NCBI GenBank assembly: GCA_030536355.1
Contig: JAUNQD010000002.1
Span: forward strand, 920-64,919
Origin: Bacillota bacterium
Lineage (GTDB): Bacteria > Bacillota > Clostridia > Peptostreptococcales > Anaerovoracaceae
Direction of reading: 5' to 3'
Length of the DNA: 64,000 bases
Shown here: positions 7,468-22,339 of the stretch, in pieces
Layout of the letters: each line of letters opens with the position of its first letter
Position numbering within the stretch: position 1 is the stretch's first letter
Notes under the pieces: generated by a model
Seen by the model: only the letters and a program-made list of their open reading frames with translations
What the model was told of the DNA's origin: nothing
Database searches by the model: none
Made by a program: the position numbers and the translations under genes

Positions 7468-8430
7468 TCAATTCTTTTCATTCAATACATCTATCATGCG
7501 CTCATCGCTTTTGCCTGCAAGAAACTCAGCTGCCCTTTGCATAGCGAAGGCTCCGACTTCTTCTATAGGTTTCCCGTCCAGGTCCGCAGCCACCACAGCT
7601 GCTGACACCACATCACCTGCGCCGGATGTCATGGCGAATGATAATACCCTTTCAGGCGCCAGCACTCCTGCAGACGCACCTTCTTTGTAGTAAAGACCGC
7701 CGCCTTTTATGGTTATGATGATCCTCTTGACTCCCTTGTCCTCAAAGAACTGGCCGGCTTCCATCAGCTGATCTGCACTGAGAACAGTGTTTCTTACCAT
7801 AGCCTCTGCTTCAACTCTTCCCGGCATCACACAGTAAAAATTGCCTATCACATCTCTGGAATTGACAGCACCCACATATCCTGCAGGATCGAAGAACAGC
7901 TTCACTCCTTCCTTGCCGCCATATGTTTCAGCTATGTATTTCAGCGTTTCCTTAGGAATGGCTCCATCAAGCACGATGGCTTCCGCACCATCAAGCACCT
8001 CTGACCACCCTTGTACTCTCTCCGGTGTTATGGCTTCATAAAGCTTGCTGTTCCCAAAAACCATCTGTGGATCGTTCAATACATTGAGCAGTTCCACCTG
8101 TACAGGCGTATTGCCTTCTACTATATCTACATGTGAATATCCCACTCCGGCACGTTTTAATTGTTCTATCACAGCGAGTCCCATGGCATCGTCTGCAGTA
8201 ACGGATAAGAACGTCACATCCTTCCCCATTTCCGCCAGATAGCAAGCCATGTTGAAAGCACTTCCGTTACTTTCTATCTTGATATCGTCGCCCTGTGCGA
8301 TCTGTGCCGCCACATTCACCTGATTATAATCGTACATATCTCCCATCTGCGGCTGCTGTTCATATGCATCTTCTTTAGGTATCATCATCACCTGTACTTT
8401 GAGTCCTGCGCCACCTATAACTGCTATCAT
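7468..8430 (-). CDS. PfkB/ribokinase-family kinase, divergent
   Basis: N-terminal VIGG, FNMACYLA, IIITIKGGG, C-terminal TSGAGD anion-hole motif. Confidence 0.75.
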   Translation of the reverse strand: MIAVIGGAGLKVQVMMIPKEDAYEQQPQMGDMYDYNQVNVAAQIAQGDDIKIESNGSAFNMACYLAEMGKDVTFLSVTADDAMGLAVIEQLKRAGVGYSHVDIVEGNTPVQVELLNVLNDPQMVFGNSKLYEAITPERVQGWSEVLDGAEAIVLDGAIPKETLKYIAETYGGKEGVKLFFDPAGYVGAVNSRDVIGNFYCVMPGRVEAEAMVRNTVLSADQLMEAGQFFEDKGVKRIIITIKGGGLYYKEGASAGVLAPERVLSFAMTSGAGDVVSAAVVAADLDGKPIEEVGAFAMQRAAEFLAGKSDERMIDVLNEKN

Positions 8431-11923: not shown

Positions 11924-12008
11924 GTAATTAGCAGTATTAAAATTAGTTTCATGGCAGTATTAAAACTGCCGACCCTGTCGATAATAACTCCACAGGAGGT
12001 AAATATAT

Positions 12009-12659
12009 ATGAGATCAGATAAAAAAACGAGCAGTAAACCCGCTGCCGCCTTGGTGCTGTGTTTTTGTCTCATGGCACTTGTTTCTGTGCTGGTTGTCAA
12101 AGCCAGCATAGACAAGGTCAAAAACAGCATGGAAACTGCCGATGTTATAAAAAAGCAAGCAGTTGAAGAGATCAATAAAACTACGCCCGAAGTCATCGAT
12201 AGTTTAGATAGCGAAGATGTTCCTCAAAACATTACGGAAAATCCATCTGATTATATTTTCCCCGTAGATGGCGAAATAATAATGGAGTATTCCATGGATA
12301 TGCCCATATATTGGGAGACCCTAGATCAGTACATGGTCCATAAGGGGATCGACATAGCAGCAAAAAAAGAAACGCCCGTGCAGGCATGCGCAGGCGGTAC
12401 AGTTACTAAAATAGATAAAAACAGCAAGATGGGAGTTACCGTTGAAATAAACCATGGCAATGGGATCATCTCTGTATACAGCAACCTTGCCAACGACGGC
12501 CTTATCGAGCTGGGTGAAGTGGTTTCCCAAGGTACAGTCATAGGCAAGATCGGTCAAAGCACCATGTTTGAATTCAACAGTCCCGACCATCTTCATTTTG
12601 AAATGTGGAAAGGCAACGAGCCTGTAGATCCGATAGAATATCTTAAACAACTATCTTAA
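12009..12659 (+). CDS. Membrane-anchored M23 peptidase (SpoIIQ-like architecture)
   Basis: N-terminal TM, HKGID (HxxxD) and HLH (HxH) zinc motifs; AGGAGG RBS. Confidence 0.85.
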   Translation: MRSDKKTSSKPAAALVLCFCLMALVSVLVVKASIDKVKNSMETADVIKKQAVEEINKTTPEVIDSLDSEDVPQNITENPSDYIFPVDGEIIMEYSMDMPIYWETLDQYMVHKGIDIAAKKETPVQACAGGTVTKIDKNSKMGVTVEINHGNGIISVYSNLANDGLIELGEVVSQGTVIGKIGQSTMFEFNSPDHLHFEMWKGNEPVDPIEYLKQLS

Positions 12660-13353
12660 CGTAGTTGATGTTCTTGCCTTTGGCCTTGAACCTTTCTTCA
12701 TACTCGGTTGTTGTGAGTCTTGATTCATAATCGCTGTTGTGAAGGTCTCTGGTTTGTTCTGTTATAGGGAACCCTGTTGCTTCTATTTCTTCCAGCGCAG
12801 AATCATACAGCGGATCATTGTCAGTCTTGAATTCGACGAAACCACCCGGCTTGAGTGCCCATGCATAGTCACGAAGCCTTTCTCTATACGTTAAGCGACG
12901 CTTTGCATGGCGAGCCTTGGGCCAAGGATCGCTAAAGTTGAGATATATGCCTGATAACTGGTTCTCTTCGAAAAGATCGTCCATGCTGTGAACGAAATTC
13001 AACATGAACTTGAGATTGGAAAGGTCAGCTCCGCCTTCGGCCAGCTCTTTCACTTTTTCCAAAGCTCTTAGGATAACGGTCTCCTGGCCTTCTATTGCAA
13101 TGAAGTTCTTGTCCGGATCGGCAAGGGCTTTTTTTATTATGAAGTTTCCTTTACCACATCCTATCTCCAGATAGATATCATTGTTGTTATCAAAATAGTT
13201 TTTGTCCGAAACTGCTTCGCCGTTTTCTCCGTTGACGTCATTCCATTCCTTGTTAAAAGAGCTAATATTCGCGTATTTGACTTCAGGCTGGATCATATAA
13301 TCCTTGCATGCCTGCAGTCTTTCTTCCATGTTTTTCGCTTTTCTCTGTCTCAT
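12643..13353 (-). CDS. trmB: tRNA (guanine-N7)-methyltransferase
   Basis: MRQRK, LEIGCGKG, LNFSDPWPKARHAKRRLT, FKTDN, TTEYE. Confidence 0.95.
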   Translation of the reverse strand: MRQRKAKNMEERLQACKDYMIQPEVKYANISSFNKEWNDVNGENGEAVSDKNYFDNNNDIYLEIGCGKGNFIIKKALADPDKNFIAIEGQETVILRALEKVKELAEGGADLSNLKFMLNFVHSMDDLFEENQLSGIYLNFSDPWPKARHAKRRLTYRERLRDYAWALKPGGFVEFKTDNDPLYDSALEEIEATGFPITEQTRDLHNSDYESRLTTTEYEERFKAKGKNINYVKIVV

Positions 13354-13387
13354 CTATCCGGTCGGCGTTCGCCGAACTCCTTTCGTA

Positions 13388-14191
13388 TTACATAAGTATT
13401 CGCTGCAGAACTATGGCTGCTAAAAACGCCACATAAAGCAGTGATGCTGCCAGGTCTCTCTTCGCCAGTTTCATCCCGTTCATTCTTGTTCTCTTGATAT
13501 TGCCGCCATAGCATCTTGCTTCCATAGCCATGGCAAGATCTTGAGCTATCCTGAATGCACTTATGAAAAGAGGCACCAGTATAGGAATGAGAGCTTTAGC
13601 TCTACTCATCAGGTTCCCGCTTTCAAAATCTGCACCTCTGGCTTGCTGTGCTTTCATGATCTTGTCAGTCTCTTCCATGAGGGTCGGTATGAATCTCAGC
13701 GCGATGGTCATCATCATTGCCAGTTCATGCGCCGGCATGCCTATCCTCTTGAACGGCGAGAGCAATGCTTCTATACCGTCAGTCAAGCTTATCGGTTTTG
13801 TCGTCAATGTCAGAAGAGATGAACCTATTATTAAAAGGATCAATCTGATTGCCATGAATATGGCCGTTCTAAGACCTTCTCTCGTTATCTCGAATATCCA
13901 GAAAGATACCAGCACTTCTCCTTTTATCATGAACATATTGATTATCAATGTGAAGGATATTATCAGAAATACCGGCTTAAGGCCTCTGAGGATGAAGCTG
14001 AGCGGTACTTTTGAAACGATTATCACTGCTGCAAGTCCCGCTGCCGCTATGGCAAATCCGATGAAATCCTGAACCACAAAAAGGGCTACGATATAAAGTA
14101 TCGTTGCCATTATCTTGACCCTCGGATCCAGTTTATGGATCCATGAGCTTCCGGGATAGTATTGTCCAAGAGTTATGTCTCTAATTGCCAT
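13388..14191 (-). CDS. ecfT: ECF transporter transmembrane component T
   Basis: LDPRVK, IALRFIPTL, AQQARG, AMEARCY. Confidence 0.95.
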   Translation of the reverse strand: MAIRDITLGQYYPGSSWIHKLDPRVKIMATILYIVALFVVQDFIGFAIAAAGLAAVIIVSKVPLSFILRGLKPVFLIISFTLIINMFMIKGEVLVSFWIFEITREGLRTAIFMAIRLILLIIGSSLLTLTTKPISLTDGIEALLSPFKRIGMPAHELAMMMTIALRFIPTLMEETDKIMKAQQARGADFESGNLMSRAKALIPILVPLFISAFRIAQDLAMAMEARCYGGNIKRTRMNGMKLAKRDLAASLLYVAFLAAIVLQRILM

Positions 14192-14197
14192 TATCTT

Positions 14198-15052
14198 CTA
14201 ACCTTGCTTTATTATCTTCGCTATCTTATCTGCCGCCTCATCTATGGTAAGGCAAGCACCTTCTATCTTCATTCCCGCCTTGTTGAGCCTTGAAACGATT
14301 TCCATAGAGTCCGGAATATCAAGCCCCATAGCCTTCAGTTCTTCTCCCCTTGAGAAAACTTCCTGAGGAGTTCCTTCCATCACCAGTCTGCCGTGATCCA
14401 TCACCAAGACCTTATCGGACATCCTGGCGATATCATTCATGTTATGCGATACGAGGAAAACGATATTCTTCTCGTTTTCCTGTATAGTCTTTACCATCTC
14501 CAGTATATCTTCGTGGGCCTTAGGATTGAGTCCTGCCGTAGGTTCATCCAAGATCAGCACTTCAGGCTTCATTGCGATGACGCCCGCTATGGCCACTCTT
14601 CGCTTCTGGCCGCCCGACAGTTCAAAGGGCGAAACATTTTTGACGGCATCATAATCAAGTCCCACCATCTCAACAGCTTCTTCAACTCTTCTATCGATCT
14701 CTTCCTGAGAAAGGCCAAGATTGGCAGGACCGAAAGCCACATCCTTGGCAACGGTCTCTTCAAAAAGCTGATACTCAGGATACTGGAATACCAGACCTAT
14801 CTTCCTTCTGATATCTCTCATCACAACGCCGCTTGCCGTGATATCGGTATCGCCGATCACGATAGTGCCCGATTTAGGCTTAAGCAGACCATTGAGGTGC
14901 TGCATCAGAGTCGACTTGCCGGACCCTGTATGTCCGATCACACCAACAAGCTGACCGTCTTCTGCACTGAAGCTCACACCCTCTATGGCAACAGACTCAT
15001 GAGGAAGTCCTTCGCTATATATATGTGTTAATTCTCTTACTTCTATCGACAT
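14198..15052 (-). CDS. ecfA2: ECF transporter ATPase A2
   Basis: [37 protein letters not shown]. Confidence 0.95.
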
Positions 15053-15876
15053 AAGTAATCTACCATCTCATCTATAGTCAAGATGCCTTCCGGAATATCT
15101 ATATCTCTTTCTCTGAGTTTCATGGCAAGATCCACTGCAGGGGGCACTCCAAGGCTAAGTTCCTTAAGTTCTTCTGCTCTTAAAAATATCTCATCAGGAG
15201 TTCCCACCATCTTAATGACCCCATCGTCCATAACGACTATCTTGTCAGCCTGTGCTGCCTCTTCCATGAAGTGAGTTATAAGGAGGACAGTGATGCCTTT
15301 CGCATTCAGCTTTTTAATAACATCCAGGACCTCTTTCCTTCCCCTTGGGTCGAGCATCGCTGTCGGTTCATCGAACACGATGCACTCAGGTTCCATAGCA
15401 ACAGCTCCCGCAATGGCTATGCGCTGCTTCTGTCCGCCTGACAAAAGATGCGGGGCCTTCTTTCTGTGCTCATACATTTCAACGCCCATAAGCGCCTCGT
15501 CAACGCGCATCCTTATCTCATCGGGATCTACGCCCAGATTCTCGGGACCGAACGCCACATCGTCCTCTACGATGGATGATACGATCTGATTATCGGGGTT
15601 TTGGAAAACCATCGCTACCTTCTGGCGAATGTCCCAGATGTTGGCTTCATCAGATGTATCAAGACCATCCACATATATTTTCCCTGATGTCGGCATGAGA
15701 AGCCCGTTGATGTTTTTAGCAAGCGTCGACTTGCCGGAACCATTCTGCCCTATGACAGCCGTGAAGCTGCCCCTTTGCACCTCAAAGCTCACATCATCGA
15801 TTGCCCTTAATGTATGCCCGTCTTCATTCTTAATATAATCAAATACCAGATTTTCTATTTTGATGAAATCTGTCAT
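15043..15876 (-). CDS. ecfA1: ECF transporter ATPase A1
   Basis: [35 protein letters not shown]. Confidence 0.95.
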
Positions 15877-16686
15877 TTAAGCTTCCTCTCCGTAATAGCT
15901 GTCCAGCCATTTCTTCATAGTGTATGTATCTGCCTGTCCCGGCGCAGAATTGCCCTTGCCTGCTGCGAATGTCATGCATGAACCGTATTTTCCTGCAGCA
16001 ACACGAGTAGCTATGCCTGCTTCTCCCATAGCGATCATGATGATAGGGCCGATGTTATTCTTAGTAAGGAAGGCTGATGCCTTCATAACATTTTCTGCAT
16101 CTTTCTTATCTAAAGCTGTAGATGCGAACTTACATATATCCGCTCCCATCACGTACATCTTCTTGACCATATCGACTATCTTGCCGGCCTGTGGAGTTTC
16201 AGACAGTTCGTGATGAGAAAGCATGACCTTGACGCCATGCTTATGAGCCTCATCTATCTGATGTCTGAGCCACTCTGTATCGACTTCTCCGTCAGCCCCT
16301 GCAAATTCGATATCGATTATATCGACGAGCTTGATTTCAGCGGCAAGTCCGTATACGCTTTCAAGCTGACTCTTGGTAAGCTTAAGACTGCCTCCCTGAC
16401 CTTCAGATCTTACTGTAAATATCAGAGGCTTTTCACCTACTATATAATTCACATCATCCAGGATCTTGACCATGTCAAGGTATCCGTTTTTATCGCTCAA
16501 GTAGCTGTCGATATCTTCTATGGCAGAAAAGTAGTAATCTGCTCTCCATTCTACCATGTCGCAAGGCAGCTGCTTCAGATTTTCGCATTCTTCTATTATT
16601 TCCGCCGGATGCTGTGATACTAAAGGTACGACTACTTTAGGACGGCCCGGTCTTAAAACTATATCTCTGATTCTTAATTCATTCAT
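15877..16686 (-). CDS. aroD: Type I 3-dehydroquinate dehydratase
   Basis: PKVVVPL, DMVEWRAD, IFTVRSEGQGG, LSHH, GADICK (Schiff-base Lys), IAMGEAG..R, SAPGQ. Confidence 0.85.
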   Translation of the reverse strand: MNELRIRDIVLRPGRPKVVVPLVSQHPAEIIEECENLKQLPCDMVEWRADYYFSAIEDIDSYLSDKNGYLDMVKILDDVNYIVGEKPLIFTVRSEGQGGSLKLTKSQLESVYGLAAEIKLVDIIDIEFAGADGEVDTEWLRHQIDEAHKHGVKVMLSHHELSETPQAGKIVDMVKKMYVMGADICKFASTALDKKDAENVMKASAFLTKNNIGPIIMIAMGEAGIATRVAAGKYGSCMTFAAGKGNSAPGQADTYTMKKWLDSYYGEEA

Positions 16687-16757
16687 AGTAATATTCCTTC
16701 CTATATTAAAAGGCTAAAGAACATTTTATCATTCTTTAACCTTTTTGGAAAGCCATA

Positions 16758-17321
16758 TTAGTCGTTTTTTGTCGGCTGCCTATATGTAAAATATGCCTTT
16801 GCAGAAGTCTTACACAAAGCCTCCGCCAACAGCAATGCCAAAACCATTCCCACTGCAAACTGTCCGATGTTCCATGGAACGCCGAGTGCTGCCACTACCC
16901 AGTTGCCGTACATGATGCCTTCCGCCGCATAATATCCTGCCGTCATCACAGCTCCCGCCAACACCATGGCAACGATCTCCATAATGACTAAGCAAGCTCT
17001 GCCTGCATCTGTTTTCCTAAAAGCAGCTTCTATGATGAGGCCCATTATTATAGCCATTATGCCTTTGATACAGAAAGTCCACGGTGCCCACGCGGCAAAT
17101 CCCCCCAGAACATCTCCCAGCATGCCGCCAAAAGCCGCTGCCACTGCGCCGTACTTCCATCCTAGAACAAGTACTGCAAGAAAAATAAAAGCATCTCCCG
17201 GATGCACATATCCTTGAGTGAATGGTATCGGTATCCTTATAAATAATATCGCCACCATGATAAGGCACATCATCAGCGCGCACAGCACCACCTTCATTGT
17301 CGCATTAGTTCTTGTATTCAT
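16758..17321 (-). CDS. ECF S component (HmpT/PdxU2-like, probable vitamin B6 or thiamine-precursor specificity)
   Basis: IRIPIP..GYVHPGDAFIF, WAPWTFCIKG; hydrophobic ~187 aa; start moved to ATG 17321 on GAGG RBS. Confidence 0.8.
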   Translation of the reverse strand: MNTRTNATMKVVLCALMMCLIMVAILFIRIPIPFTQGYVHPGDAFIFLAVLVLGWKYGAVAAAFGGMLGDVLGGFAAWAPWTFCIKGIMAIIMGLIIEAAFRKTDAGRACLVIMEIVAMVLAGAVMTAGYYAAEGIMYGNWVVAALGVPWNIGQFAVGMVLALLLAEALCKTSAKAYFTYRQPTKND

Positions 17322-17352
17322 AATAAAACCTCTTTTCAAGCGAAATTGTTTG

Positions 17353-17397
17353 CTGTATACTATGATAAACTATAATTGTATATAAATTAATATACAG
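17353..17397. promoter_or_regulatory. Candidate MocR operator (two direct half-sites plus one inverted)
   Basis: CTGTATA 17353, TTGTATA 17376, TATACAG 17391 in the divergent intergenic gap. Confidence 0.5.
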
Positions 17398-17435
17398 AAA
17401 TAATTATTTTTATAATAACAGTTAGGAGTTATTCG

Positions 17436-18818
17436 ATGAAAGCCATACTTCCTACTCTAGATGAAAATCGAAAAAGACCATATTACCTGCAGCTATATGA
17501 CTATATCAGCAACGCGATCATCCGCGGAGATATCCTGGAAGGAGAGAAGCTCCCATCCCTTAGAAACCTTGCAAAATCAACGGGTCTGTCTATTACCACC
17601 ATAGAACAGTGCTACAACCAGCTGCTTGTGGAGGGCTACATATTCAGCAAAGCCCAGTCAGGCTACTATGTCAGCAAGGTATTCCCACACTCCGAAACAA
17701 CTGTACCTGTAGAAAAAGGCTTATCTGTTCCACAGTATTCAGATATGCAAAGCGCACTTGCCGATGAGCCGAAAGTTTTCAGGCACGACCCGGGGTGTTT
17801 TGATTTCAACAAGTGGAAGAAGTGCATGAACAAAATACTTACGGAGTATTCATCTACTCTTTTCTTCGAAGGTGACCCCCAGGGAGAATCTGTCCTTCGG
17901 CGTGAGATAGCCCGCTACCTTTACATATCAAGAGGCGTATCCTGTAGTCCGGAACAGATAATCATCGGTGCAGGTACACAACAGATCACCAATCATCTAG
18001 CAACGATTTTGAGAAAGCTGGGTATCGAGCATGTATCTCTTGAGTCTCCGGGATATCTTCCTGTAAGAAACATCTTCCGAGACAGAGGCTTCAGTATCAC
18101 AGATGTTGTCGTAGCAGACGACGGTCTAGTGATCGAAAAGCTTCCTGCCAACGTCAGGACAGCTGCGTATCTCAGCCCTTCAAACAATATGTTCACCGGT
18201 GCCGTGATGCCCGTGGGCAGAAGGTATGAGCTTTTGAACTGGGCAAAGGCAAACGATAGCTACATCATCGAAGATGACTACGACAGCGAGCTTAGATATT
18301 TCGGAAAACCGATACCTGCCCTCAAAAGTCTTGAAAACAGTGACAGAGTCATATACCTCGGGTCTTTTTCCAGTACGTTGTTTGCCGCTGTCAAAATAAG
18401 TTACATGGTCCTCCCTGCTGAAATGGCATGGCTGTTTTCTTCTATGGCTGCTGACTATTCTCAGACTTGCTCCAAGCTGGAACAGCTCACCTTGGCCCTT
18501 TTCATGGAAACCGGAAATTACAGGACCCATATCAAAAAGCTCAGAAATCTGTATTCACAAAAGCTGGATCTTGTGACCGATACCCTTGATCAGGCAGCAT
18601 CTGATTTCATCGAAGTAAGGAACACCTCTTCCGGTATGAATATCGTACTTAAAGTCACTTCGTCCAAGTCTTCGGAACAATTAAAAAAGGAAGCCGAAAG
18701 TCTCGGCCTCCCTATATCCGTCCTTGAAGACGATTTATTTATATTTTATTACAATCAGCTTCCTCTTGCTGAGATACCTGATCTTCTGAAATCCCTGGCA
18801 GCTCTATGGCACTCATAA
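17436..18818 (+). CDS. MocR/GabR-family (PdxR-like) transcription factor
   Basis: N-terminal wHTH YLQLY..GEKLPSLRNLA..LLVEGYI; AAT-like domain IIEDDYDSELRY. Confidence 0.92.
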   Translation: MKAILPTLDENRKRPYYLQLYDYISNAIIRGDILEGEKLPSLRNLAKSTGLSITTIEQCYNQLLVEGYIFSKAQSGYYVSKVFPHSETTVPVEKGLSVPQYSDMQSALADEPKVFRHDPGCFDFNKWKKCMNKILTEYSSTLFFEGDPQGESVLRREIARYLYISRGVSCSPEQIIIGAGTQQITNHLATILRKLGIEHVSLESPGYLPVRNIFRDRGFSITDVVVADDGLVIEKLPANVRTAAYLSPSNNMFTGAVMPVGRRYELLNWAKANDSYIIEDDYDSELRYFGKPIPALKSLENSDRVIYLGSFSSTLFAAVKISYMVLPAEMAWLFSSMAADYSQTCSKLEQLTLALFMETGNYRTHIKKLRNLYSQKLDLVTDTLDQAASDFIEVRNTSSGMNIVLKVTSSKSSEQLKKEAESLGLPISVLEDDLFIFYYNQLPLAEIPDLLKSLAALWHS

Positions 18819-21387
18819 GCTGCCTTTTTCTTATTGCCATGGCAGCAACCAGCACCAATATGGACAGTATAGAAATGATCATACCTGCTATAAGTCCCGG
18901 CGGTCTGAATGTAAGGCTTATATCGTGTTTACCTTCATCAAGCGGCACAGAAATGAACACGCCTCCTGTCAGTTCCTGTATTTCCTTCTGTCTTCCATCG
19001 ACTTCCAGCTTCCAGCCCTTGTCATAAGGTATGGAAGTCACCAGAACTCCGGATTCTTTGACATCTATGGTCCCTTCAAGATGGTTATCACTATGATCTG
19101 TCACCGTCAGCATATTATCTGCCAGCATTTCGTACGCCTTATCCCATGTGCCGTAGTCAAGGCTTCGAATGTGACATGTGATATCCCCCGCCTTGCCCTT
19201 AGGGTATTCGACGATGATTTTAAACTTCTGGCCTTTTTTCATGGTACCAAGGTTCACGATCGATCCGCAGTCGTTTCTTATGGATATATCATCAAGCTCA
19301 TCGCCATTGTTTGCTGTTATCGTACCTGCGTTTTGAGCTTCTATAAATACATAATATTTCTGTGTTTCTTCGGCAGTGTATTTCAGAACAACTTCAGCAG
19401 AACTTTTTTTATCCTGCACCCTTGCAGAGAACTTACCGTCTGCCACTGTTTTTATGACAGCGTTCTTGGCAGAAGTCTCAGGTGCTGCTGCGGATTCGAA
19501 AACGCCTTCGTATTTATTGGCTGTTGCCGCACGGACATAGTCGTCGAGAACTTCAAAAGGATTTTCGCTTTCGGTATTCCATGTCCTTATCTCATTGCCC
19601 GTCATATAGCCGATGGACAGAGGATACTTGCTTTCGTATAATCTCGAGTAGCCTGATCTTCTCACTTGAACAAAATCGCTGTCTTCAAGCTGTCTGTTCT
19701 TGGTTATGAGGTATCTTATATTCATCATGGCGTTGGATACGGGATCCTTCTGGTTGTAGTTGAACCTGTTCCTGCCGGGCGATCCATCCATACCGATCTT
19801 TTCCATGATCTCTGTAGTATCTGCATTTATGGATGAAGAGAACTGAGATATCCCTCTGTAATGATACATGGCAGGATTATTCAGTGTGTAGAGCTTATCC
19901 ATTTCAGCCCTGGCGAATTCTTCATTTGCCACTTCGACCAGATTCTTGACATCACTGCTGTTGGCAAAATATCCTTCTCTGTAGCTGTTGCCTATTCGGT
20001 CCATGGATGTGCATGCTCCTGTTGCCATTTCTGCCACGATGACAACCACGATAAGAAGCGAAACCGAAGAAGACATCAGCTGCCCTTTGCGTGATAAGAT
20101 CATGATGGCAGAATAAAGTATGAGCCATGCCAGACCTCCGTAGAAAAAGAGCTCTGTGCTGTAATTCTGATCTTCCATCAGTTTCTGAGTGATAAGATAA
20201 TATCCTATGCCTGCAGCCATAAGGGTCCACAGATGCTTTATCTTGAATTCATCCCTTCTCTGTATAGTTCTGTATGCAATACCTATGAGGATGAAACATA
20301 TCACGAAAGTATATCTGTATGGAAGCTGGTTAGGGAAGTGGAGTCCGTGCCATACGAAGTCCAGCTTATTGGTGTTGAGGCTGAAGAACATAAACAGTAA
20401 GAATCCGCCGTTGAGCAGTTTTTCTCTTAGTTCTATGTTCTCATTCACCACATAAAGCACCAGCATCATAACAACGATCATTCCGCAGTAAAGATTAGGA
20501 AGACCTTCTCTGAAAGTCAGTTCCGTATACGGAAGCAGTTGATTTATCACATCTAGCGCATCATTATATATATCCCAATCCTTCGGCATCTCCGATGAAA
20601 TATAGTAAGTGCTCTGCATACTGATATATGTAGGAAGCAGCATGACAGCGGCCATGGCTATCCCCAGGAATGAATAGCCCACGGCTTTTCCTGTAGTTAT
20701 CGCGCATTTTCTTATCCCGCCGTCTTTCACCTTGAGAAAGTACAGTACAGGATAGTAGAACATTATGAAGATGCATACCATTATTGCCATGTAGTAGTTG
20801 GAGAACACCACAAGTGCCAGGCTCACAACATACATGACAGCTCTGCCGTCATCGATCAGTCTGTTCAGCCCCAGTATACAAAGCGGTAGCAGCATGACAG
20901 CATCCATCCACATGATGCACCAATAGTAAGCCATAACGTATGAGCACAGTGCATAAAGAGTAGCAAATGCCACCGTTACCATGTTGCACTCTTTGCCAAG
21001 ATACTTAAGATAAATGGCCATGAAGCTTCCTGCAAGACCTATCTTGATAAGAAGTATAGCTGTGATCCCTTCCATTATGAGTTTCTTAGGGAAAAGTACC
21101 AGCAGCAGATTAAGAGGGCTTGCTCCGTAATATGCCATCAAGTTCCAGAAATTGCTGCCGCCCGCTCCATTCCATGTATAAAACAGGCTGCCGCCTTCCT
21201 GAAGCTTGTACTGAAGTTCTCCAAGGAAAGGCACATACTGATGATACATATCGATCACGGCTATCTGCGCATCTCCGAACGGATATATCCCGGTAACGGC
21301 AAAAGCCAGTACCACGAGCAGTACCGGCAGCATAAATGCGATAAATATCAATTTGTTGCTGATCAGAAATCCTTTTATCTTATTCAT
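18739..21387 (-). CDS. YfhO-family GT-C membrane glycosyltransferase
   Basis: YPFGD..IAVIDMYHQYVPF, AYYGASPLN, HGLHFPNQLPYRY, C-terminal SIPYDKGW; 882 aa polytopic. Confidence 0.88.
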   Translation of the reverse strand: MNKIKGFLISNKLIFIAFMLPVLLVVLAFAVTGIYPFGDAQIAVIDMYHQYVPFLGELQYKLQEGGSLFYTWNGAGGSNFWNLMAYYGASPLNLLLVLFPKKLIMEGITAILLIKIGLAGSFMAIYLKYLGKECNMVTVAFATLYALCSYVMAYYWCIMWMDAVMLLPLCILGLNRLIDDGRAVMYVVSLALVVFSNYYMAIMVCIFIMFYYPVLYFLKVKDGGIRKCAITTGKAVGYSFLGIAMAAVMLLPTYISMQSTYYISSEMPKDWDIYNDALDVINQLLPYTELTFREGLPNLYCGMIVVMMLVLYVVNENIELREKLLNGGFLLFMFFSLNTNKLDFVWHGLHFPNQLPYRYTFVICFILIGIAYRTIQRRDEFKIKHLWTLMAAGIGYYLITQKLMEDQNYSTELFFYGGLAWLILYSAIMILSRKGQLMSSSVSLLIVVVIVAEMATGACTSMDRIGNSYREGYFANSSDVKNLVEVANEEFARAEMDKLYTLNNPAMYHYRGISQFSSSINADTTEIMEKIGMDGSPGRNRFNYNQKDPVSNAMMNIRYLITKNRQLEDSDFVQVRRSGYSRLYESKYPLSIGYMTGNEIRTWNTESENPFEVLDDYVRAATANKYEGVFESAAAPETSAKNAVIKTVADGKFSARVQDKKSSAEVVLKYTAEETQKYYVFIEAQNAGTITANNGDELDDISIRNDCGSIVNLGTMKKGQKFKIIVEYPKGKAGDITCHIRSLDYGTWDKAYEMLADNMLTVTDHSDNHLEGTIDVKESGVLVTSIPYDKGWKLEVDGRQKEIQELTGGVFISVPLDEGKHDISLTFRPPGLIAGMIISILSILVLVAAMAIRKRQLMSAIELPGISEDQVSQQEEADCNKI

Positions 21388-22339
21388 CCAGATCGCTTTC
21401 CTTTTCTATATATATTGGTCTGCCCTTTGTTTCCATGTACATTCTGCCGATGTATTCTCCCATTATGCTTAAGACAGCAGTTACGAGTCCTCCGAAGAAG
21501 AGGATCAGGCAGATTATGGACGCATAACCGGGCACATCTTTACCGACGATCAGCGTCTTGAGGATCTCTATGATGAGATATATGGCAGAGCCCAATGTTG
21601 TAAGTCCTCCAAATACGCCTATCGCTTTGAGAGGTGATGCAGCGAAATCTATGAAGCCTGCGATGGCATATTTAGTGAGTCCCCATACGGACCACTTGCT
21701 CTCACCTGATATACGCTCAACGTTTTCGAATTCGATCCACTCTGTATGGAATCCCACCCATGCGAATATCCCCTTGGAGAAACGCTGGTTTTCAGGCATG
21801 CTTACTATTGCCTTTATCATCTTGCGATTCATGAGCCTGAAATCTACGGCACCATCTATTATCTCGATATCGCTGTAGCGGTTCATTATCTTATAAAATG
21901 CTCTGGCAAAGATGCTCCTTACTCTTGGTTCTCCTTTTCTTGTAACGCGTCTGGCCGCGCAGCTGTCACATCCGGTCTCCTCGATCTTTCTTATCATATC
22001 CTCGATAAGCTTAGGCGGATGCTGAAGGTCCGCATCTATGATCACAGCAAAATCGCTCGCGCGGTCATTGGCCGCTTTGAGGCCTGCGTACATCGCTGCC
22101 TCTTTACCGAAATTACGGCTGAATGAAATGTAATGCACGCAGTCGTTTTCTGCTGCGATCTCCTTGATATTGTCAAAGGAGCTGTCTTCACTTCCATCGT
22201 CTACAAATATATAGCTGAACTCGTAGCCTTCGATCCCGGAAACGACCGCCTGAACATCGTCAAAGAAAATATCTATATTTCTGCCTTCATTGTAACAAGG
22301 CACTATTATGTCGATCATTCTTGATTTCTTTTCTGACAT
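21380..22339 (-). CDS. GT2 polyprenol-phosphate glycosyltransferase (CsbB/GtrB-like)
   Basis: IVPCYNE, VDDGSED, SRNFGKEAA, DADLQHPP, two C-terminal TMs, GEYIGR. Confidence 0.92.
   Translation of the reverse strand: MSEKKSRMIDIIVPCYNEGRNIDIFFDDVQAVVSGIEGYEFSYIFVDDGSEDSSFDNIKEIAAENDCVHYISFSRNFGKEAAMYAGLKAANDRASDFAVIIDADLQHPPKLIEDMIRKIEETGCDSCAARRVTRKGEPRVRSIFARAFYKIMNRYSDIEIIDGAVDFRLMNRKMIKAIVSMPENQRFSKGIFAWVGFHTEWIEFENVERISGESKWSVWGLTKYAIAGFIDFAASPLKAIGVFGGLTTLGSAIYLIIEILKTLIVGKDVPGYASIICLILFFGGLVTAVLSIMGEYIGRMYMETKGRPIYIEKESDLDE

Follow-up and report, generated by a model that had tools for sequence, protein, structure and literature searches.

The DNA analysed here, referred to as the window, is a stretch of 64,000 nucleotides from a member of the Anaerovoracaceae whose genome (1.83 Mb, 97.8% complete) has Lentihominibacter, Emergencia, and Aminipila as its nearest named relatives. 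It encodes a regulator of 460 amino acids at 17436..18818 (+) and, divergently from it at 16758..17321 (-, ATG at 17321), a 187-amino-acid ECF transporter S component of the PF07155/COG4720 (PdxU/PdxU2-HmpT) family, the predicted target of the regulator. Between the two genes lie a predicted operator of 47 bp (17376..17422) and the predicted promoter of the S gene. Beyond the S gene and co-directional with it, an aroD-like gene (15877-16686; PF01487) precedes a general ECF module, ecfA-ecfA'-ecfT (13388..15876, -), recognized from ORF translations and probably the energizer of the S component. No terminator-like site was found in the 71-bp gap 3' of the S gene, and the regulon predicted for this host comprises the S gene alone, possibly continuing through aroD to ecfA-ecfA'-ecfT. 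The pairing of regulator and divergent PF07155 S component recurs in 69 of 89 loci from the family.

The regulator was assigned by Pfam (PF00392 and PF00155), NCBIfam, and structure comparison. It shows the layout of MocR proteins, with an N-terminal GntR winged helix-turn-helix domain (residues 17-79), a disordered linker (residues 83-112), and a fold-type-I aminotransferase (AAT)-like sensor domain. It scored 424.5 bits against the PdxR equivalog model NF052282 (cut-off, 320) and 342 against the GabR model (cut-off, 600); in addition, the position of GabR R207 is occupied by Pro, and gab genes are absent. Bacillus clausii PdxR was the best sequence match in the PDB (E 3e-77), and GabR and PdxR were the best structural matches of the AlphaFold model (pLDDT 84), which superimposes on the PdxR AAT domain at 2.5-2.6 Å rmsd. 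We are highly confident that the gene at 17436-18818 encodes a PdxR-type regulator of vitamin B6 salvage. The host also encodes a distant second MocR (24% identity; G000:C27:22849-24150), in which a simple pattern search did not find the canonical lysine motif.

The active-site lysine was reported to be conserved across all MocR clusters (PMC6677901). In ungapped alignments with B. clausii PdxR (7PQ9) and Bacillus subtilis GabR (4N0B), with residue numbering according to PMC10450172, and by conservation, the corresponding position (GabR K312, PdxR K309) is Ser313 in the window regulator, encoded by AGT at 18372..18374 (+). The bases from which the original prediction had concluded that the Schiff-base lysine is missing are present at 18360-18395, in frame within the ORF. 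Site 313 is Ser in 117 and Thr in 4 of 121 aligned homologues, and Lys is absent from all 107 loci of the clade (S100, T4, A2, M1), which are mostly from Anaerovoracaceae, include about 4 duplicates, and were compared with 55 Lys-bearing outgroup loci; as with all our counts over related genomes, these are non-independent samples. Lys was likewise absent from all 89 loci fetched from the host family, in which 204 of 301 genomes contain a match to the regulator at E<=1e-60, mostly a strong one. All six Ser codons are in use at this site among the clade loci, which, together with the conservation, rules out a sequencing error or a private mutation. A conserved Lys-less MocR subfamily therefore exists, as had been proposed. 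In one genome, a frameshift near residue 300 interrupts the gene of the orthologous regulator (L253/L256; G027:C1:17176-18523), reflecting either an assembly error or a pseudogene.

In trees calculated without the motif columns, the window regulator falls inside a Ser clade (SH-aLRT 96-100), and the basal Thr group and the Ser group are compatible with a single lysine loss (AU 0.88). Ser-clade regulators were also found outside Anaerovoracaceae, in Coprobacillaceae (L017, L018), possibly via transfer. For the Gln group of Brevibacillus, a single origin shared with the other Lys-less MocRs was marginally rejected (AU 0.036), and the Brevibacillus/Paenibacillus group probably represents an independent loss. 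Its members (L036, L050, L052, L059, L066, L076) carry Gln at the site and have lost the phosphate-binding Arg too; the gene divergent from them is conserved and appears, by eye, GNAT acetyltransferase-like. The nearest Lys-bearing relatives (L029, L233) already carry a divergent S gene, which makes loss of the lysine within a pre-existing PdxR-PdxU divergon the most likely course.

In GabR, the phosphate of PLP is contacted by T181, T309, S311, R319, and S321, the ring nitrogen by D279, and the ring is sandwiched by Y205/Y281, while the carboxylate of GABA is bound by H114, R207, and R430 (PMC11669113). The Lys-less regulators conserve the phosphate and ring contacts. Asp280-Asp281-Tyr282, encoded at 18273..18281 (+), supplies the equivalents of D279 (D280) and Y281 (Y282); both are invariant across the 107 clade loci, as are Y207 and S312, while S310 and S322 are each retained in 106 and T181 in 99 of them, with V or I at position 181 in basal members. 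The pocket residues are invariant down to about 44% overall identity. The phosphate-binding Arg (GabR R319, PdxR R316) was originally described as replaced by Lys, and this change is real (Lys320, 18393..18395, +; Lys in 95 of 107 clade loci). The site is always Lys or Arg in the clade, and since Arg is kept by 12 of the 107 clade loci and by 27 of 58 proteins in the wider Lys-less set, the replacement is secondary and was rejected as a defining co-change. In GabR, R319A loses its affinity for PLP (PMC11669113), and the exchange to Lys should weaken phosphate binding. Further changes specific to the clade are H250N, F286L, V345C, and G438Y. Judged from its residues, the pocket still looks suited to a 5'-phosphorylated pyridine, although formation of the canonical internal aldimine would be impossible.

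A relocated lysine might still hold PLP covalently, and Lys347 (18474..18476, +) was considered as a candidate: it is present in 106 of the 107 clade loci and lies within the cross-subunit loop that PdxR lends to the pocket of the partner subunit (residues 335-342 region). However, Lys347 was rejected as a substitute, being present in 14 of 25 Lys-bearing sisters and missing from some Lys-less members, and Lys320, the other conceivable position, is the one so often occupied by Arg in the wider Lys-less set. Conservation analysis found no lysine column that is fixed in the Lys-less proteins yet missing from their Lys-bearing sisters, and covalent capture by a displaced residue appears extremely improbable. 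Because no substitute aldimine lysine is evident by conservation, non-covalent binding of the effector is to be expected, in agreement with the original prediction. The regulator behaves like a PdxR yet lacks the canonical residue for covalent PLP binding and is classified here as a non-canonical PdxR variant.

The operator comprises an inverted box (17376-17381) and two direct-repeat boxes (17392-17397 and 17417-17422) at a 25-bp interval; an A/T tract lies between boxes, and the box spacing is rigid. This corresponds to the two direct repeats and one inverted repeat in a divergon known for PdxR; the B. clausii site has 48 bp and three motifs (PMC10450172). With a position weight matrix trained without the window and scored by leave-one-out, the window operator reached 27.7, and no other site of the host genome exceeded 18. 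Scores above 18 were obtained for 79 of 81 S-linked loci, scores below 4 for 18 of 26 regulator loci without an S gene, and a single one of 1,672 control upstream regions exceeded 12, necessarily the window site or its like. A predicted -10 hexamer of the S-component promoter, TATCAT (17362..17367, -), was identified, its promoter function being deduced from a TAnnnT hexamer that begins exactly 9 nt beyond the operator on the S strand in 82 of 84 sites. The middle box is directly adjacent to a weak -35 position (17385-17390), and the inverted box sits in the -35/-10 spacer, a geometry consistent with apo-activation and holo-shutoff. The operator is not exclusive to the Lys-less regulator: a Lys-bearing clostridial PdxR locus (L058, pdxK-pdxU) has a similar site scoring 17.7, implying that the DNA motif was inherited. 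At six loci of close relatives (L001-L004, L008, L089), the adjacent S gene was lost but the operator and the -10 element were retained before aroD-ecfA-ecfA'-ecfT, with shifted spacing in L008, which suggests that the regulator governs its own gene or the ECF module.

This operator architecture bears on the possibility that the protein is a dead sensor, an effector-blind activator locked in the apo form that keeps B6 uptake switched on in auxotrophs. In EnuR, loss of the lysine abolished PLP incorporation and produced an effector-blind protein, and the K302H variant was constitutive (PMC8739950); moreover, the family is mostly auxotrophic, and one of its regulators, in G027, is frameshifted. 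But the invariance of the pocket at such sequence distance speaks against a protein released from ligand binding, as does the inverted box, bound by holo-PdxR, which is conserved to the same degree as the direct repeats. We therefore regard a blind regulator as very improbable.

The S component scored 118 bits against PF07155 (cut-off, 26.7). Its sole PDB match was 4HZU chain S (E 5e-7, low identity), which we take to be HmpT/PdxU2. Of the HmpT pocket residues, Y120, N140, and Q143 are identical in the window protein and E41 is conserved as Asp, whereas H84 is replaced by Lys and Q87 by Met. HmpT/PdxU2 was reported to carry pyridoxamine (PMC4860826), but on sequence grounds this substrate is not automatically transferable to the window S component. 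The pocket motif of the latter is common to pdxK-linked PdxU proteins; these also have K85, which was consequently rejected as a phosphate contact. Eight loci (L019, L029, L096, L140, L151, L227, L228, L233) have divergent S components of 250-270 amino acids, in which an internal insertion of about 70 residues adds hydrophobic segments.

The operator also marks genes away from the regulator. In genomes in which the S gene is not adjacent, 15 of 18 S-family genes elsewhere carry it upstream in the correct orientation (score above 15), and six of the genomes with detached S genes (G028, G096, G107, G206, G283, G068) have a single PdxR-like gene each. Many of these operator-bearing S genes are followed by a gene for a class V aminotransferase with 2Z9U as the best PDB match (E 1e-51) and pyridoxamine-pyruvate transaminase (PPAT) as the best NCBIfam match, at a score of 254 that lies below the equivalog cut-off of 600. 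The enzyme retains a Gly-Glu motif aligned to that of the Mesorhizobium loti enzyme, the Glu of which (Glu68) presumably excludes phosphorylated vitamers. Among 16 PPAT-like loci gathered by enzyme search, four of which overlap the detached-S-gene set, the operator (score above 11) was present in 12 of 14 from regulator-bearing genomes versus 0 of 2 from regulator-less genomes. An S component and a PPAT-like gene occur together under the operator in about 13% of the family genomes (L222:1477-3162, L236-L250). Pyridoxamine and PMP transaminases are enzymes of B6 metabolism, one of them from a Clostridium (PMC9309667), and this gene pair may represent an operon by which anaerobes salvage pyridoxamine.

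Further operator-associated genes point in the same direction. A pdxK gene lies immediately 3' of the S gene in L163, and a regulator-less pdxST operon bears the operator in L182 (score, 21.4), in a genome (G102) with a second PdxR-like gene; the fit at the pdxST operon of L185 is weak (8.5). As a general target, pdxST was rejected, since 11 of 13 pdxST operons of the family have their own adjacent Lys-retaining MocR and only L182 and, weakly, L185 fit. Matches at the pdxK promoters of L191 and L205 were likewise dismissed because the Lys-less protein was not found in those genomes. In the two Coprobacillaceae loci (L017, 2834-3388; L018), a gene for DUF436/YwlG, a probable PLP binder (PMC6522883), follows 3 bp after the S gene. 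A third type of S component bears the operator (scores 12-31) in L226 (740-2022), L220, and L215; in L220 and L226 it is followed by an Amidohydro_2 gene, possibly for salvage of acylated or conjugated B6. The original prediction had left room for a different vitamin. This part was not supported: only genes of B6-salvage type (PdxU-like S components, the PPAT homologue, pdxK, and pdxST) make up the operator-defined regulon, no thiamine (thi) genes were present among the operator-bearing loci, and no Rfam riboswitch match was obtained in window positions 12000-22000. Since the operator-bearing genes are B6-type, the predicted regulon is one of vitamin B6 salvage, and the Lys-less regulator appears to control B6 uptake and salvage genes across a largely gut-dwelling anaerobic family.

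Although the host has YggS and PLP enzymes, no PdxS, PdxK, ThiD-type kinase, or PPAT-like orthologue was found in its nearly complete genome. Its sole PfkB-family match (7468-8430, -) lies next to a uridine-kinase-like gene and is itself divergent and pseudouridine-kinase-like, and a weak PF08543 match was discarded as a B6 kinase because it is an Nnr-like dehydratase. PdxS, PdxK, and ThiD are all missing from 25 of 60 regulator-bearing family genomes that are at least 90% complete, and PdxS is present in only 13 of 121 family genomes, so that most of the family are auxotrophs. The occurrence of pdxK in 15 of 71 regulator-bearing versus 21 of 50 other genomes (Fisher p 0.016) carries no weight because the genomes are related. 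The missing routes to PLP imply either an unrecognized kinase or import of a phosphorylated vitamer. A kinase-free salvage route, with a dedicated PMP sensor and an S component that imports PMP or PLP, seems rather doubtful; the sharing of the S-component pocket motif with pdxK-linked PdxU proteins does not favour import of a phosphorylated vitamer. PMC9997740 lists B6 transporters and missing kinases among the open questions; such a route, if true, would explain the absence of PdxS, PdxK, and ThiD from the host and the 25 other genomes and fill a recognized hole in the PLP salvage pathway.

Taken by itself, the sequence is compatible with PMP, PNP, non-covalently held PLP, or a PLP adduct as the effector. 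A phosphorylated B6 species bound non-covalently is what we would expect with good confidence. As to its nature, we lean toward an amine or alcohol, PMP first and PNP second, rather than PLP or its adducts, because the aldehyde-selecting lysine is lost and the regulon is pyridoxamine-biased, although the host genome lacks the PPAT-like aminotransferase. Our overall reading, to which we assign a probability of roughly 60%, is that the gene encodes the B6 homeostasis regulator of Anaerovoracaceae, the equivalent of PdxR in a lineage without the aldimine lysine, with a PMP-type effector. For ligand, direction of regulation, and transported substrate we infer the following course. At low B6, the ligand-free dimer would, by analogy to PdxR, occupy the two direct-repeat boxes beside the weak -35 element and activate the divergent S gene while repressing the regulator's own gene. 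The S component would bring a B6 vitamer in through the shared EcfAA'T module, and the rising intracellular phosphorylated vitamer would bind non-covalently in the AAT-like pocket between the pyridine-N Asp, the tyrosine sandwich, and the phosphate cup. The liganded dimer would then move to the outer pair of inverted boxes, of which one lies in the -35/-10 spacer, and uptake would be switched off.

The same regulon could be governed by PLP after all, either as the non-covalently bound aldehyde or hydrate or as an external aldimine or adduct that it had formed beforehand with an amino acid or amine. Every non-covalent PLP contact is retained, apart from the Arg that is mostly Lys. The K258A variant of AAT has very high affinity for external aldimines. 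Active GabR contains an external aldimine released from the lysine (PMC11669113), and YggS without its lysine still binds PLP (PMC13689441). Even so, discarding the residue behind tight PLP capture brings no obvious gain, and alignments of homologues revealed no conserved equivalent of the carboxylate-binding GabR residues H114, R207, and R430; we consider PLP an unlikely effector. Less likely still is sensing of an unphosphorylated vitamer (pyridoxamine, pyridoxine, or pyridoxal) or of a heterocycle outside the B6 group, for example HMP, the first supposed cargo of the HmpT family. The Arg-to-Lys change at the phosphate site, the clade-specific H250N, F286L, and G438Y, and the lack of a recognizable B6 kinase in the host would fit such a ligand, but the conserved phosphate-cup hydroxyls and basic residue, the B6 salvage and synthesis operons bearing the operator, and the failure to find a TPP riboswitch nearby make it improbable. 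A PMP-type effector remains our preferred reading.

Among characterized systems, B. clausii PdxR (7PQ9, 7ZLA; PMC10450172) resembles the window regulator in domain layout, fold, pyridine Asp, tyrosines, phosphate serines, and a divergon whose operator holds three motifs and an A/T tract within 47-48 bp. It differs in having Lys309 and Arg316, in two histidines (equivalent to GabR H248/H400) that are Asn in the window regulator, and in its target, adjacent pdxST, whereas the window operator has a TGTA-like core and serves salvage genes. B. subtilis GabR (4N0B, 5T4J) shares the fold and the PLP phosphate and ring contacts, but its Lys312 and carboxylate triad have no equivalents here. Closest in regulatory logic are the PdxR (Clostridia) regulog (PMC5320631) and Streptococcus pyogenes PdxR-PdxKU (PMC11619246), in which MocR proteins control COG4720 S components, pdxK, and pdxST; for S. 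pyogenes PdxR, activation in the absence of B6 was shown (PMC11619246). The Clostridia regulog does not include Anaerovoracaceae among its members, Lachnospiraceae-type PdxRs (L058, L070, L077) keep the lysine, neither publication mentions a missing lysine, and the regulon described here adds the PPAT-like transaminase and the amidohydrolase-linked S gene. The suggestion of a distinct vitamer-sensing circuit is borne out in part: the Lys-less subfamily is real, but the layout is that of known PdxR-PdxU regulons, and the divergon also occurs with Lys-bearing regulators (L029, L233). A full-text literature search of partial coverage did not turn up any natural PdxR reported to lack the lysine, and scattered earlier mentions are possible.

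The characterized B6-sensing MocR regulators in the literature covered rely on the Schiff-base lysine. If this residue was lost under selection across the whole family while the B6 regulon stayed intact, the fold would prove capable of recognizing a different vitamer without a covalent bond. It would then provide a natural PMP or PNP sensor, on which a biosensor selective for one vitamer could be built. The operator, in turn, allows substrate predictions for the PPAT-like enzyme and for three types of S component that lack annotation. It also points to gut anaerobes with B6 uptake but no known kinase, for which Emergencia timonensis and Aminipila are cultured representatives.
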